A DNA stretch of 64,000 bases, from IMG/VR virus record IMGVR_UViG_3300045539_000120, positions 1 to 64,000 of that record; one strand, given 5' to 3'. The notes under the pieces were generated by a model. The model was not told the origin of the DNA. It made no database searches and worked only from the letters and a program-made list of their open reading frames with translations. The translations under genes were made by a program, and so were the position numbers. Source of the stretch: a virus. Position 1 is the first letter of the stretch. Each line of letters starts with the position of its first letter. Below are positions 1,723 to 44,483 of the stretch, in pieces.

Positions 1723-2025
1723 TTAACTAGGATTCCATTCTTTTTTATAAATTAGTTCCCAATGCGCTCGATATTCTCGAACATTCATCATTTTAATTGT
1801 GTAATTTGAGTACATACCATCTTCATAAATACTGACAAATATTGCCATTGATGATGGTGTAACATGGTGTAATTTTGCCCATTTAAAAAGTGCTTTAATA
1901 TTACCCTTCTGTCTCATCTTTTTGGCAAAAGTCTTAAAGTCACAATCCCATCTAGTAGGATAGTAGCTCAGAATACCCGGGATACCAAATCCTATATAAC
2001 CAATATTAAATACAATTTGACTCAT
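1723..2025 (-). CDS. hypothetical protein
   Basis: 100-aa ORF; its stop lies beside the element copy. Confidence 0.4.
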   Translation of the reverse strand: MSQIVFNIGYIGFGIPGILSYYPTRWDCDFKTFAKKMRQKGNIKALFKWAKLHHVTPSSMAIFVSIYEDGMYSNYTIKMMNVREYRAHWELIYKKEWNPS

Positions 2026-3149
2026 TAGTGAGAATCTCCAATGTTATTTTTCTCACCAAATATTAAGTACTCTGGGTTTATAACCTTTGCAACCTTATTT
2101 CTTGCACCAGTAATATGTTTAATTACAATTCCTTCATGTGGTACCTTAGTGCCTTCAATAAAGTTATTGAATGTAAATTTATCTTGTACCTCTTGATTCC
2201 ATAATCCATTATATAATATTTCAACATGTGGAAGTTCTAGAACATCTTCTATGATGTATTCGGTCATCTCAGGGTCAACATAAGTTCCATTGATTGTTAA
2301 ATCAAATGCCGCAAATTCAATTGTATCTAAACCATATTCATAGTTCTTTTGAATTCCTGCACCATAAATTTCACCATACAGAACAAAACCAGAACCAATT
2401 TCCTCAACACTTCTACCTTTCACAGCAGTCCAAAGTTTTTCTTTGATACCAAGAGTTTCGTTAATAGTTCTCCAAACATCAGTTGAATAGAACCCTTGTG
2501 TGTCAGATCCTTTTTCACAGTTATGAGATCCGTAAATATATTCATAATCAATCCACTCATTGGCAATTCCTAAGAATTTTCTTGCCCGATCCCAGAATGA
2601 CAATTTAGATTTCTTTACAATACCATAACGTGCATTTGTACCATGTAATTTTCTGGAGATTTGAACTCCATCTTCTTCAGTAAATAAACCTGCAACATTT
2701 TTCAAGTTTGGAAACTTGTAGTACACATGAAAGTTTTGATTATCTCTCCATTTGATTTTTCTACCAGAAGCCAATTGAATTTGTTTTACGGGTGGTTCGA
2801 ATTTAGTGATACCTAACTCTTCCATTAAGTCTCTACCTTCTCTGATACTTGAAGCTTTGATATGTATTACTGGAATGATTAAACATTCAGAATAAACACC
2901 ACGCAACTTTACAGTACGTACCCTGCTTCCTTTTCTCAAGTATGAAGTAACACCCATCTTTTCAGAAAGTGCCTCTGGGATAACTGCATCTGTTGTTGCA
3001 ATTACAGTTAAGGACCCTTCTTTAAATTCACCTTTCTTTGTGATGGCATTCCATCCTCCAGCAACGACCAATTCAATGTTATCTGCTCCTTCGATTGCTC
3101 TTACTTCGTTTATTTTTGCTACATAGCAAACTGAATTTTGATTTTCCAT
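2025..3149 (-). CDS. ATP-dependent RNA ligase (Rnl-type nucleotidyltransferase)
   Basis: covalent nucleotidyltransferase motif I KLHGTN (K-x-H/D-G) and an N-terminal domain typical of phage/bacterial RNA ligases; sits beside a tRNA array and a PNK-like kinase. Confidence 0.6.
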   Translation of the reverse strand: MENQNSVCYVAKINEVRAIEGADNIELVVAGGWNAITKKGEFKEGSLTVIATTDAVIPEALSEKMGVTSYLRKGSRVRTVKLRGVYSECLIIPVIHIKASSIREGRDLMEELGITKFEPPVKQIQLASGRKIKWRDNQNFHVYYKFPNLKNVAGLFTEEDGVQISRKLHGTNARYGIVKKSKLSFWDRARKFLGIANEWIDYEYIYGSHNCEKGSDTQGFYSTDVWRTINETLGIKEKLWTAVKGRSVEEIGSGFVLYGEIYGAGIQKNYEYGLDTIEFAAFDLTINGTYVDPEMTEYIIEDVLELPHVEILYNGLWNQEVQDKFTFNNFIEGTKVPHEGIVIKHITGARNKVAKVINPEYLIFGEKNNIGDSH

Positions 3150-3166: not shown

Positions 3167-3307
3167 TTATCTGTCTGCTAATCTTTTAAATACTGCTGCA
3201 ACTTCTGGCTCTTCTAATTTCTTTTTCAAAGATTGCCATTTTTCCTCCAAGAATTGGTTGTACTCTTGTTCAGTTTTAAATCCCATCTTTTTCCAATCCA
3301 TTTTCAT
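3167..3307 (-). CDS. small hypothetical protein (46 aa)
   Basis: ATG directly downstream of the element copy at 3310-3400; below ORF-track cutoff. Confidence 0.3.
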   Translation of the reverse strand: MKMDWKKMGFKTEQEYNQFLEEKWQSLKKKLEEPEVAAVFKRLADR

Positions 3308-3309
3308 AA

Positions 3310-3400
3310 TATTGTTTGTTTTAATTATAATGTAAATATAACTATAATATTTGAACTATGAAAACTTTTTTGAATTTATTTCCAAAAAGTTATTAACAAT
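3310..3400 (-). promoter_or_regulatory. conserved intergenic element copy (candidate phage promoter/leader)
   Basis: attgtttgttttaattataatgtaaatataactataatatttgaactatgaaaactttttt...aaaagttattaacaat. Confidence 0.5.
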
Positions 3401-3403
3401 TTG

Positions 3404-3890
3404 TAGTCAGGACAGGAATCGAACCTGCAACGCAAAACTTAATTCGTCTTAGCCTACTTTCACCTGACTTCCGTTCTAATGGAGGCATCGCACCTCAAAG
3501 ACTGTTCATAAACTAGTTTAATTAGCGTAGTCAGGACAGGATTCGAACCTATATGAGTTTCTTTCACCTCCACTCCATATAGAGTTGCGTCTCTCCAATT
3601 CCGCCACCTGACCTTTTGCAATTATGGTTGATTAGACCTCATGAAGTTTATTGCCCTCCAAGCCCAGTTTCCGTAACGGCGCAACTGAATTTCAAAACCC
3701 GCTCTTGCCTCACGCCCAAGAGTATGTCGGTACGTTTTACAGATACGCACATCATCTGAGTAATCAACTCATTGTAGTTAGGGTAGGATTCGAACCTACG
3801 ACATTTGCAACCAAAGGGATGTGATAGACCGCTTTCACATTACGCAATACCTAACTTCCATAAACCTAGCCTGACCTTCCAGACAGTACA
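3404..3890 (-). tRNA. array of at least 4 tRNA-like genes; several are non-canonical (e.g. a ~66-nt element at 3404-3470 with a perfect 7-bp acceptor stem and T-arm but a shortened D/anticodon region)
   Basis: repeated minus-strand T-loop signatures (RC of ggaatcgaacc / ggattcgaacc) with complementary acceptor strands (AGTCAGG/CCTGACT; GGTCAGG/CCTGACT; AGTTAGG/CCTAACT); anticodon arms could not be folded canonically by hand. Confidence 0.4.
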
Positions 3891-3934
3891 TGTCAAAATT
3901 AATTTGGCGCCTTGTTATGTAGTAGGTTCTTATT

Positions 3935-4534
3935 TTATATCATTACATCAATAAATTGTTTCTTCCAATCTAACCAAGGTTCCTTTGTCACCTTGAAATG
4001 GGTTAAATATTTCCAATGCATAAATAGTTTACGTTCATTCCAATCTTCATATTTCTTAATCAGATCACTTTGTTTATCTAGTTCAGTTTTATAAGTATCT
4101 GCCTTTTCAGAAAGTTTAGTAAAAACATCATCTATTTTTGCCAATCGGTTTACTGCCTTTTCAGTTGGTAAACCTTGTACCGATAACGAAACTATCAATT
4201 CTTTAAGATTAACTATTTTACTAATCATAGAATTTAATGTTGGAACACATGCATTATATGAAGTCTTTGCAGATTCTAAATGTCTTTTAAAACCATCAAA
4301 GTTCTCTTGTAATTCTCTGTCCTCTAAATCCTCTTTAAATAAAGATTCGGGATCGATTCCAAAGTATTTGTCAAAATCGTCTCCACCTGGAAGTGGCGCT
4401 TTAACTGCCAAACCTGCAATGTCCATATCTTTAACTTCATTAAGAACCGCAACATAACAATTACCTCGTTGAGTTTCTAAAAGTTCTTTAACCTGTTTTT
4501 CGTTATATAGTTTCATATTATAATTTAATTTCAA
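3935..4534 (-). CDS. hypothetical protein
   Basis: 199-aa ORF. Confidence 0.45.
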   Translation of the reverse strand: MKLNYNMKLYNEKQVKELLETQRGNCYVAVLNEVKDMDIAGLAVKAPLPGGDDFDKYFGIDPESLFKEDLEDRELQENFDGFKRHLESAKTSYNACVPTLNSMISKIVNLKELIVSLSVQGLPTEKAVNRLAKIDDVFTKLSEKADTYKTELDKQSDLIKKYEDWNERKLFMHWKYLTHFKVTKEPWLDWKKQFIDVMI

Positions 4535-4913
4535 AACGTTCTTTCATCTTTACTAATGTTTCTTTTGGAACATTGTGTGAATTTATTCCTCCATGCCTGT
4601 TTTCTACAACTATAGAATGTACTCTATATCCATATTTTTTGGCTAAATCATAGTAGGCCTGCATTTCCCATTCTTGCGTAAATGTGTTTGATACTACTAC
4701 ACTATGCTCATATTTCATAAGAAACTCTACCTCTTCTTGACACCAATCATGGGCTTCTTTAATCAGAGAAAAGTCAAATTTGTAATTTCCATCTCCGTCT
4801 ATAAAATACATATCGGCCTCTTTGTGACAATAATCTTTATCACCAACTAACATTTTTGCCAATGTAGATTTTCCAGCTCCTGGTAATCCTCTTAATAAAA
4901 ATAGTTCTTTCAT
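4518..4913 (-). CDS. P-loop kinase, polynucleotide-kinase-like (AAA_33-type)
   Basis: Walker A GLPGAGKSTLAK at the N-terminus; small size and adjacency to RNA ligase and tRNAs. Confidence 0.5.
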   Translation of the reverse strand: MKELFLLRGLPGAGKSTLAKMLVGDKDYCHKEADMYFIDGDGNYKFDFSLIKEAHDWCQEEVEFLMKYEHSVVVSNTFTQEWEMQAYYDLAKKYGYRVHSIVVENRHGGINSHNVPKETLVKMKERFEIKL

Positions 4914-19502: not shown

Positions 19503-20041
19503 TTCTTTATATTCATTAGATGTTTATTTAATTCAGGATTTGAAGATTTCTTAACATTCCATATTTGGTACATTTTAATCCTATTGAATTTGAATATTTG
19601 AGGGAACACCATCACTCTTAAACGTATCCAGAGTATATTCAGGGACTTCCACATTAATGATTTGGGTGAAGTTGATGTAACAATTACTCCAAGTTTCTTG
19701 TCCTCTAGGAGACCCTTACCATCCTTAAATGCAAAGTTATTAATGAAAACTTGGTCAATAAATCCTTCGATTAGTGGAGATAATGAGAGCCATCTACTTG
19801 GTGAGATTATCCAAATATGTTGTGATGTTTTTATTAGGTGTCGATATGATTTTGCGAAAGCATTATCGTTTATTTTAGAAAGATCTCCGACGAACGATGA
19901 TGGATTATAACCATCAAGATAGAGATCCACTACTTGGACATAATGTCCCTCCTTATTATAGCACATCCTAATCGTTTTTAAGAGTTTGGTATTCTCAAAT
20001 GAAGTACGATCTGGATGTGCTATAACTATAAGGCAATTCAT
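19478..20041 (-). CDS. flavodoxin-like NAD(P)H-dependent oxidoreductase (NQO1/azoreductase-like)
   Basis: N-terminal MNCLIVIAHPDRTSFEN pattern typical of the Flavodoxin_2 family. Confidence 0.5.
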   Translation of the reverse strand: MNCLIVIAHPDRTSFENTKLLKTIRMCYNKEGHYVQVVDLYLDGYNPSSFVGDLSKINDNAFAKSYRHLIKTSQHIWIISPSRWLSLSPLIEGFIDQVFINNFAFKDGKGLLEDKKLGVIVTSTSPKSLMWKSLNILWIRLRVMVFPQIFKFNRIKMYQIWNVKKSSNPELNKHLMNIKNIVNNFIK

Positions 20042-41820: not shown

Positions 41821-41892
41821 AGCGGGTGAGGGACTCGAACCCCCGACCTTAAGCTTATGAGGCTCACGAGATACCAACTTCTACCAACCCGC
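41821..41892 (-). tRNA. tRNA-Met(CAT)
   Basis: acceptor GCGGGTT/CACCCGC, anticodon loop CTCATAA. Confidence 0.6.
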
Positions 41893-41903
41893 AATATATC
41901 TTG

Positions 41904-41975
41904 TAGTCAATAAAGGACTCGAACCCTTATTCCCGAGTTCGTAGCCCGGTGTTCTATCCATTGAACTAATCGACT
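41904..41975 (-). tRNA. tRNA-Arg(ACG)
   Basis: acceptor AGTCGAT/ATTGACT, anticodon stem CCGGG/CTCGG, loop CTACGAA. Confidence 0.75.
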
Positions 41976-42954: not shown

Positions 42955-43062
42955 GTAATTATGATTGGATTCGAACCAATTTCAGCTTTACAATAAAGAG
43001 TATATTTCAACTCAACCTTTGTGAGGTGCCGCCAACCAATGGCCTCATAATCATTTGTGGAT
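42955..43062 (-). tRNA. tRNA-like element with long extra arm and no readable standard anticodon
   Basis: acceptor GATTATG/CATAATT (G-U at bp 1) and T-arm ATTGGTTCGAATCCAAT. Confidence 0.25.
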
Positions 43063-44342: not shown

Positions 44343-44401
44343 AATTCTAATTCTACGCTCACAATATGTAGTTCTATGAATTAGTAACAGTCTCGTCTGT
44401 G

Positions 44402-44472
44402 TCTAATAGGCAGGATTCGAACCTGCGTACTCCTCAGTCCAAGTGAGGCATGTGACCTAGCTTCGCTACTAG
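44402..44472 (-). tRNA. tRNA-Pro(TGG)-like
   Basis: acceptor CTAGTAG/CTATTAG, perfect anticodon stem CCTCA/TGAGG with loop CTTGGAC; D-arm atypical. Confidence 0.45.
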
Positions 44473-44483
44473 AAATTTAATTT

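Follow-up and report, generated by a model that had tools for sequence, protein, structure and literature searches.

Bacteriophage T4 encodes, directly after its tRNA genes and on the same strand, a 139-nucleotide (nt) RNA known as species 1 (rnaC; AF158101). Its 3' end bears a canonical T-arm (CCGGGUUCGAAUCCCGG) and an acceptor-like strand that pairs with the 5' end (CGAUUCG/CGUUUCG), and ~100 nt of non-tRNA interior stand in place of the D, anticodon, and variable regions. Species 2 RNA of the same phage (rnaD) has, by reading of its sequence, no T-arm, and both RNAC and RNAD were still termed RNAs of unknown function in a 2022 study (PMC9697503). Here, we analyze an array of three tRNA-like units in a 64,000-nt stretch of viral DNA, positions 1 to 64,000 of IMG/VR record IMGVR_UViG_3300045539_000120, referred to below as the window; all unit coordinates are given on the window and lie on its minus strand. 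The units share the architecture of species 1 RNA, which is their closest known analogue, although rnaC differs in having two U.U mismatches in its acceptor stem and no tRNA-Leu D-arm. There is no homology to rnaC beyond a generic T-loop, and a blastn comparison with GenBank phages returned no T4-type record. We regard it as probable, though well short of certain, that the array is a noncoding RNA operon whose non-decoding, tRNA-scaffolded RNAs are excised by the host's tRNA-maturation enzymes, the tRNA-like parts acting as processing and stability handles.

A scan of the window for T-arms (5-bp stem, UUCRANN loop) whose following 7-nt strand forms a perfect helix with an upstream 7-mer located three units within positions 3404-3856. 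Unit 1 (3404 to 3469, 66 nt) is closed by AGUCAGG/CCUGACU, unit 2 (3528 to 3613, 86 nt) by GGUCAGG/CCUGACU, and unit 3 (3775 to 3856, 82 nt) by AGUUAGG/CCUAACU. Each of these is a perfect 7-bp acceptor stem with discriminator A, and each unit carries a GGUUCGA(A/U)UCC T-arm (5-bp stem, UUCRANY loop). Elsewhere in the 128 kb of both strands, the scan yields ARAGORN-called tRNAs, a further unit at 42956-43052, and one weak spurious match; because almost everything else it returns is a known tRNA, the three units are not a chance pattern. The interiors measure 34 nt in unit 1, 54 nt in unit 2, and 50 nt in unit 3, and a canonical anticodon arm (5-bp stem, 7-nt loop, U33, purine 37) is absent from all three. 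Lacking a 7-nt anticodon loop on a 5-bp stem, the units cannot decode. An earlier sequence-only reading of this region had described four units with intact acceptor and T arms around a noncanonical middle. The intact arms and the unusual middle are both borne out, and the count is not, as the scan finds no fourth T-arm; the supposed fourth unit may be either the M RNA described below, which has an 8-bp closing stem and no T-arm, or an orphan GGUCAGG in the leader of the array.

In unit 1, 16 unpaired nt precede a 4-bp hairpin with a 6-nt loop (CGAA-UUAAGU-UUUG) and then the T-arm; there is no D-arm, and the unit folds with a z-score of -2.36. Unit 2 opens with a D-arm of the normal tRNA-Leu type (GCGGAAUUGGAGAGACGC; GCG...CGC, with GG), after which come a hairpin of 5 bp closed by a 4-nt loop (ACUCU-AUAU-GGAGU), a second hairpin, GAG/CUC, that encloses the loop GUGAAAGAAA, and the T-arm. 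Its counterpart in two related loci, L050 and L261, is 129 nt long, with ~43 nt of additional insert. Unit 3 contains an additional helix, P2 (UUGC/GCAA), which displaces a D-like hairpin (GUGA/UCAC); a mini-arm (CC/GG) and the T-arm complete it. The heptamer GUGAAAG recurs in all three units, in a different structural context in each, and was observed 6 times in the family against 1.1 expected.

Ordinary cloverleaves, the outcome that the sequence-only reading had named as its refutation, were sought with ARAGORN and with Infernal against Rfam and were not returned for any of the units. ARAGORN with default settings makes a sole call, an 87-nt "tRNA-Pro(tgg)" at 3527-3613 with an implausible long arm. 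In intron mode (-i) at normal stringency, it makes no further call on the gene strand; its mitochondrial mode (-mt) finds 0 genes in 3300-4000, and an 80% score threshold brings one weak additional call. With the Rfam tRNA model (RF00005, gathering threshold 29 bits), unit 2 reaches 34.1 bits; the acceptor, D, and T parts account for this score, and the anticodon region is left unaligned. Unit 3 is a partial match at 15.7 bits, below the gathering threshold, and unit 1 has no tRNA match, matching tRNA-Sec alone at 21 bits against a threshold of 47. An Rfam search of 3200-4100 at E values up to 10 gave tRNA-type matches only, with no ribozyme, riboswitch, Y RNA, intron, or transfer-messenger RNA (tmRNA); ARAGORN also finds no tmRNA in the window, and the tmRNA candidate was rejected. 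The proposal of armless tRNAs, such as those of organelles, does not fit either. The T-arm is canonical and the anticodon arm is the missing part, the mitochondrial mode finds none, unit 2 keeps a normal tRNA-Leu D-arm, and unit 3 has a D-like hairpin together with a covarying helix.

The units belong to a large and apparently undescribed family. Its scaffold reads AGUCAGG-UG-GCGGAAUUGGUAGACGC ... ACAGGUUCGAAUCCUGU-CCUGACU-A, with 30-200 nt of unrelated sequence between the two parts. Eighty related loci were fetched through the RNA ligase gene that flanks the array; their IMG/VR contigs reach 271 kb, and so these loci come from large phages. Most carry ordinary tRNA arrays; in many there are, in addition, elements missed by ARAGORN in which the scaffold encloses 30-100 nt of unrelated sequence. 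The 21-nt pattern at the 3' end of the scaffold occurs at no fewer than 120 loci in viral contigs, and at least 194 distinct units were collected from at least 120 viral contigs and 18 contigs of metagenome-assembled genomes (MAGs). The 194 units form a continuum of lengths from 54 to 259 nt without a peak at normal tRNA length. Of these, 39 are called by ARAGORN, in almost every case with mismatches in the anticodon stem or an anticodon loop of incorrect size. Without the scaffold, the interiors fall into about 159 similarity groups, and reading of the 194 units revealed no anticodon-stem halves flanking the inserts. On nine related loci, Rfam at gathering thresholds finds only tRNA and one tmRNA, and its tRNA model gives family units 34-45 bits compared with 50-77 bits for the real tRNAs of the same loci. 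The first two units had been noted to share 25 nt, tagtcaggacagga(a/t)tcgaacct, and this had been attributed to duplication. The shared stretch is real and represents, in plus-strand reading, the T-arm and the 3' strand of the acceptor stem. Duplication is too narrow an account of it because these 25 nt are the constant scaffold of a family present in well over 100 phage contigs.

Among 185,579 species-representative genomes, the scaffold 21-mer is found in 18 contigs, all from MAGs and none from an isolate genome. These contigs are labeled Chitinophagia, Saprospirales, and Flavobacterium, with a scatter of other assignments, and all bear the same kind of unit. Because the 21-mer appears only in MAG contigs that carry such units, the frame copies no host tRNA on record, and mimicry of a host tRNA was rejected on these grounds. 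The phage represented by the window probably infects Bacteroidota. Among GenBank phages, blastn found no close relative of the array region or of the first 12 kb of the window, and a full unit compared with GenBank gave only generic matches to tRNA-Leu D-arms or to T-arms. A literature search, limited in coverage and hence not proof of novelty, found no description of the AGUCAGG-scaffold family.

Variations on the frame occur among the related loci. A canonical tRNA-Lys(UUU) with an AGUCAGG acceptor and an ACAGG T-arm is present in L131 (1217-1287, minus strand), indicating that the acceptor/T minihelix is common to real tRNAs and non-decoding units. In some units, the D-loop accommodates a further large insert, located between GGCGGAAU and UUGGUAGACGC (L066 2302-2448, L157, L166 4212-4392, and L195 3737-3918). 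A phage tmRNA (L166 5724-6218; Rfam, 68.5 bits) lies amid scaffold units and tRNAs. Among cultured phages, Flavobacterium phage FL-1 has an unannotated element of ~170 nt, 12 nt after a coding sequence (L257 1497-1667; KY421186.2, ~19627-19797), and Leuconostoc phage phiLM33_01 has one of ~118 nt (L271 ~399-516; PV780767.1). Both are built on a tRNA-Leu scaffold with large noncanonical interiors and acceptor sequences other than AGUCAGG. Xanthomonas phage Xoo-sp13 (L258 ~1496-1581; MN047793.1, ~41840-41925) carries a canonical tRNA-Leu(UAG) with an encoded CCA that is unannotated in GenBank.

Conservation and covariation argue that the units are maintained. The family search fixed the 3' 21 nt, and hence the acceptor pairing, and left all other positions free. 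Conserved at these free positions are U8 (95%), G10-C11-G12 (75-85%), A14 (80%), A15 (86%), G18 (82%), the U immediately before the T-stem (81%), and the discriminator A (92%); the position after G18 is G in about half, a figure blurred by variable D-loop length in a fixed-position logo. The class to which unit 3 belongs, with at least 15 members, has invariant GUAAUG, UCC, and GGUU stretches. Its helix P2, a 4-bp element found in no tRNA, occurs as UUGC/GCAA, AUAC/GUAU, AUAU/AUAU, AUGC/GCAU, and GGGC/GCUU, and its D-like hairpin as GUGA/UCAC, GGCA/UGUC, GAGA/UCUC, and GGGA/UCCC. In an alignment of 12 members, 92% of cells pair, compared with 30-41% when the partners are slid, and both sides change in 13 of 20 pairs; 0 of 500 shuffles match the observed values. 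In unit 2, the hairpin ACUCU-AUAU-GGAGU becomes GCCCU-AUCA-GGGGU in L099, a compensatory change that favors the 4-nt loop over the "anticodon" loop drawn by ARAGORN. The unit 1 hairpin is kept in L083-L087, with one pair appearing as G.U, G-C, and A-U among three close relatives. Across the family, inserts fold more stably than their shuffles (mean z, -0.63; n = 140; p, 1e-13). The whole array of unit, M RNA, unit 2, S module, and unit 1 is also conserved in L083-L087, away from the ligase gene and at another genomic site.

A fourth unit that ARAGORN does not call lies in the main tRNA array of the window (42956 to 43052, 97 nt, GAUUAUG/CAUAAUU). Its interior recurs on the AGUCAGG frame in L083, L129, L259, L260, and L099. 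In this class, 8 of 26 pairs are compensatory, including pairs of the acceptor, T, and D stems, all of which are compensated between the two frames. With the same interior on two frames whose stems are compensated, payload and frame are separable modules. The payload of the 97-nt class has an invariant CACCUC, the core of an anti-Shine-Dalgarno (anti-SD) sequence.

From 5' to 3' on the minus strand, the order of the array is leader, unit 3, M RNA, unit 2, S module, and unit 1. The M RNA (3626 to 3768, 143 nt, GUUGAUUACU...GGUCUAAUCAACC) is separated from unit 3 by a 6-nt linker, CAAUGA (3769-3774), and from unit 2 by a 12-nt linker (3614-3625). Ten distinct homologues were found; all of them have a tRNA-like unit on one side and a scaffold unit on the other, with the same short linkers. 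For nine of these, RNAalifold predicts 39 pairs, 11 with compensatory changes, and the M RNA has no Rfam match. By eye, its 5' domain resembles an H-type pseudoknot, and an acceptor-like terminal stem is followed by a CCA-like ...AACCA end. The S module (3470 to 3527, 58 nt, CGCUAAUUAAACUAGUUUAUGAACAGUCUUUGAGGUGCGAUGCCUCCAUUAGAACGGA), situated between units 2 and 1, was found at 14 distinct loci in different phages, and in all of them it starts directly after the discriminator of a tRNA-like unit, usually with another unit next. Units therefore bracket the M RNA in all homologues and the S module on its 5' side in all and on its 3' side usually. The S module is nearly invariant in sequence and unstructured (folding z-score, +0.95), and within it GAGGUG precedes an AUG and a mini-open reading frame (mini-ORF) of 4 codons. 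A 31-codon ORF (3404-3489, minus strand) starts at the S-module AUG and spans exactly through unit 1. The frames of this ORF and of the S mini-ORFs are not conserved among homologues, and both candidates were rejected; the 31-codon ORF is probably spurious.

The flanks of the units resemble those of real tRNAs at positions that were not selected for in the family search, namely, -1 and the positions after the discriminator. The nt before the unit is U in 78% of units and in 72% of canonical tRNAs of the same loci; U at -1 is a known preference of bacterial RNase P. After the discriminator, C follows in 98% of units and is succeeded by A/U and then A, while the canonical tRNAs have C in 93%, then A-A. 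The tRNA genes and units of these phages encode C74 and not the full CCA, which, together with U at -1, suggests a particular route of 3'-end maturation in the host. Of 160 informative cases, units and flanking genes share a strand in 152 (95%), and units are placed close to ORFs more often than canonical tRNAs are. An upstream stop codon falls within 20 nt of the start in 26% of units versus 6% of canonical tRNAs, and an ATG follows within 20 nt of the end in 20% (mostly at 13-17 nt) versus 4%. Homing endonucleases or other known families were considered for these small neighboring ORFs and rejected, since the ten ORFs adjoining units that were checked against PHROGs are all essentially ORFans.

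In the window, the array occupies a gap of ~620 nt without a credible ORF (3310-3935), and the surrounding genes are all on the minus strand. A putative promoter, TAATTTTG (3894 to 3901, minus strand), perfectly matches TAnnTTTG, the -7 box consensus of Bacteroidota; this stretch is conserved with the related loci L050 and L046. It is followed by the 5' leader, GACAUGUACUGUCUGGAAGGUCAGGCUAGGUUUAUGGA (3857 to 3893, minus strand), which shows ~90% identity to its counterpart in L050 and 97% to that in L046, where a different tRNA-like unit comes next. The leader holds the orphan GGUCAGG (~3870-3876), a copy of the 5' strand of the acceptor stem. Downstream of unit 1 is an AT-rich, promoter-like intergenic sequence (3301-3402, minus strand), which recurs at several intergenic sites in L007-L020 and is, on that account, probably a repeated phage promoter region. 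The downstream flank carries the RNA ligase gene (2025 to 3149, minus strand; phrog_968, E value of 1.4e-57; Pfam RNA_ligase and a PHA02142 OB-fold domain), and the upstream flank carries a gene for a P-loop kinase resembling polynucleotide kinase (4518 to 4913, minus strand; phrog_2071 and phrog_505; Pfam AAA_33). A 46-codon ORF on the ligase side and a 199-codon ORFan on the kinase side lie between these genes and the array. A functional link of the units to the ligase and kinase, as in tRNA repair or splicing, was rejected, as both genes occur in only 3 of 138 loci selected by their units.

The scaffold also bears on the question of leucine identity. Positions 7-26 (GUGGCGGAAUUGGUAGACGC) match the D-arm region of tRNA-Leu genes in several GenBank records and presumably that of Escherichia coli tRNA-Leu as well. 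The leucyl-tRNA synthetase (LeuRS) of E. coli requires A73, the A15-U48 pair, G18G19, and A20a, and it dispenses with the anticodon and the long variable arm, such that tRNA-Leu variants without both arms are still charged (PMC9976931). The scaffold consensus and unit 2 retain these determinants; unit 1 lacks them, and in unit 3 they are altered. Retention of the known E. coli determinants makes leucylation of full-scaffold units such as unit 2 plausible. To judge from sequence, such units may be chargeable with leucine by E. coli rules, which may not be those of the host.

In the reading that we favor, the host's tRNA-maturation enzymes would recognize each unit, and RNase P would cut on its 5' side. 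The 3' end would be trimmed by the pathway that serves the phage's real tRNAs, with the CCA then completed, and the precursor would thereby be divided into discrete, stable small RNAs. The units would serve as "punctuation" handles both for themselves and for their neighbors, namely the M and S RNAs here and small mRNAs in other phages, and those with a full tRNA-Leu scaffold would perhaps also be leucylated. What the family retains of a tRNA is the acceptor stem and the T-arm, usually with the tRNA-Leu D-arm, making up the acceptor/T minihelix and the elbow; an idiosyncratic structured insert stands in place of the anticodon and variable arms.

Several points weigh against this model. Transcription, cleavage, CCA addition, charging, and the role of the inserts are all steps that we infer from what is observed, namely the structure of the units, their family, their conservation and covariation, their tRNA-like flanks, and their orientation and placement. 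The constancy of the scaffold's 3' end in our sample is partly one of construction because the search used an exact pattern. The units of the window are not tightly packed against ORFs: unit 3 has a gap of ~78 nt on its upstream side, and unit 1 has one of ~96 nt on its downstream side. The argument for leucylation extends to unit 2 at most because unit 1 has no D-arm and the D region of unit 3 is not of the Leu type. Finally, for punctuation alone, ordinary tRNAs or any minihelix would suffice, and punctuation alone leaves unexplained both the conservation of inserts across phages and scaffolds and the constancy of the scaffold.

It is quite possible, even if on balance we doubt it, that what matters in these RNAs is the payload, with the tRNA frame as no more than an expression and stability scaffold. 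The inserts would then be trans-acting effectors (aptamer, sponge, or decoy) directed at a factor of the host or of a rival. Such a role would suit the presence of about 159 insert types on one scaffold, the occurrence of one insert on two unrelated scaffolds with fully compensated scaffold stems, and the conserved unpaired stretches inside inserts, such as CACCUC...AAGGUUGAGU and GUAAUG/UCC/GGUU. The units also sit among ORFan genes, and ORFan-rich regions of phage genomes, as we read them, often hold host-takeover genes. Decoys for host nucleases had been proposed from the sequence. Units without anticodon loops could not decoy anticodon nucleases, and decoying could apply only to enzymes that read the acceptor, T-arm, or elbow; defense enzymes that recognize the body of the tRNA instead of its anticodon would be among them. 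On the other side, no target was found, Rfam shows no known aptamer or ribozyme, and the excess stability of the inserts is modest. Antisense regulation was rejected, as interiors, M, and S show no complementarity within the window beyond that of shuffled sequences. Display of SD-like or anti-SD-like motifs (GGAGGUGA in unit 2, GAGGUG in S, and CACCUC in the 97-nt class) was rejected as well, these motifs not being enriched across 178 payloads. A payload role is, moreover, compatible with the processing-handle model and does not exclude it. More tentatively still, and in our view unlikely as a whole, phages of Bacteroidota and perhaps of other hosts may deploy modular RNAs in which a tRNA-Leu-derived frame, processed by the host and possibly leucylated, displays hundreds of trans-acting payloads.

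We consider it improbable that the units act as DNA, with their constant ends as recombination or mobility sites that shuffle gene cassettes in the manner of the promoter early stem-loop (PeSL) cassettes of T4-type phages or integron attC sites. This would account for identical scaffold ends in phages that are otherwise very divergent, with few window proteins having homologues in the unit-selected loci, and for units 5-20 nt from ORFan genes, the array at different genomic sites in close relatives, and one payload on two scaffolds. What is conserved, however, is specific to a tRNA fold (U8, A14, the 15-48 pair, the T-loop, and GG in the D-loop), and stems covary rather than remaining fixed in other scaffold types. 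The orientation of the units, 152 to 8, goes with transcription, their flanks are like the processing signals of tRNAs, and no linked recombinase was found. A DNA-level role could nonetheless coexist with one at the RNA level.

Pseudogenes had also been suggested from the sequence; that the units are decaying tRNA-Leu pseudogenes or functionless debris of duplication appears more improbable yet. Unit 1 lacks a D-arm, unit 2 looks as if shortened by deletion from the 129-nt form of L050 and L261, the leader contains an orphan GGUCAGG half-stem, and tRNA-finder scores are poor, all as decay would have it. It is contradicted by conservation of the scaffold across the family at positions that the search left free, by perfect acceptor and T stems in 3 of 3 units, and by compensatory changes in interior helices. 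Leader and trailer signatures are the same as those of real tRNAs, 95% of units are co-oriented with flanking genes, and the whole array is kept at another genomic site in L083-L087.

Least credible of all, to the point of being very nearly dismissed, is that the units are genuine decoding tRNAs with introns or odd anticodon loops, perhaps spliced by the adjacent kinase and ligase: ARAGORN can force a 5-bp stem with the 7-nt loop UAUGGAG ("Pro UGG") on unit 2, kinase-like and RNA ligase genes do flank the array, and L131 does have its tRNA-Lys(UUU) on the family acceptor/T frame, but the forced loop has A33 and not U33, its stem breaks in L099 while the tetraloop fold stays, a type-II tRNA-Pro is to our knowledge no known tRNA type, the window already has a normal tRNA-Pro(UGG) at 44401-44475, intron mode finds nothing new, inserts of 30-200 nt show no split anticodon-stem halves, and ligase and kinase accompany units in only 3 of 138 loci.

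The processing-handle model has parallels in several known systems. With bacterial type-II tRNA-Leu, the family has in common the 7-bp acceptor stem, T-arm, A73, A15/U48, and G18G19; unlike it, the units have no anticodon stem-loop and no regular long variable arm, and they accommodate inserts of up to ~200 nt, some in the D-loop. tRNA punctuation and tRNA-like processing signals operate in mitochondrial polycistronic transcripts, in the MALAT1-associated small cytoplasmic RNA (mascRNA), and in the tRNA-microRNA (TMER) genes of murine gammaherpesvirus 68 (MHV68). In those systems, tRNA-shaped elements adjoin other genes or RNAs, and RNase P and RNase Z release the neighbors. The units are alike in bracketing the M and S RNAs and in abutting ORFs, and cleavage would be the further likeness that we propose. 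The established examples are eukaryotic, organellar, or herpesviral, whereas here, the genome is that of a bacteriophage and the inserts are large and conserved. Engineered tRNA scaffolds provide a further parallel, as in these the anticodon arm is replaced by arbitrary structured RNA and the acceptor, T, and D parts confer processing and stability. They are laboratory constructs, of which the units would be a natural counterpart, and the family could offer natural designs for tRNA-scaffolded RNA expression.

Two bacterial RNAs are also pertinent. Bacterial Y RNAs of the YrlA type have a permuted topology that ends in a Ro-binding stem and not in an acceptor stem. YrlA RNAs are described as noncoding, with a tRNA-like domain that mimics the D/T elbow, and as encoded by phages in some cases (PMC4201824). 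Rfam gave no Y-RNA match in 3200-4100 or in nine related loci; no search for a Ro/Rsr gene was made. In Bacillus cereus, tRNA-Other is described as a non-translating pseudo-tRNA with a regulatory effect (PMC3399842). By that description, it resembles the units as a tRNA-like bacterial gene outside translation, in its case with a phenotype; it differs as a single chromosomal gene with a near-normal cloverleaf, and not a multi-copy phage family with replaced anticodon arms.

Such elements matter in the first place for annotation, which drops these loci or labels them odd or pseudo tRNAs, leading to distorted or inflated tRNA counts and affecting codon-usage arguments for large phages. If the model is correct, the tRNA shape would be a general handle by which phages commandeer RNase P and the 3'-end and CCA machinery of the host, perhaps with LeuRS as well, for many small RNAs and for the cutting of transcripts. 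FL-1 and phiLM33_01 provide two cultured phages as possible experimental systems. The comparison with T4 remains the most direct. T4 has one RNA of the rnaC type, whereas the phages described here have a multi-copy family with a constant scaffold and about 159 types of insert. Species 1 RNA made this type of RNA known in the 1970s, and the family offers a comparative framework for it with hundreds of members and covariation; should the inserts prove to be effectors, the family would provide a first functional handle on a puzzle that T4 species 1 RNA has posed for 50 years.

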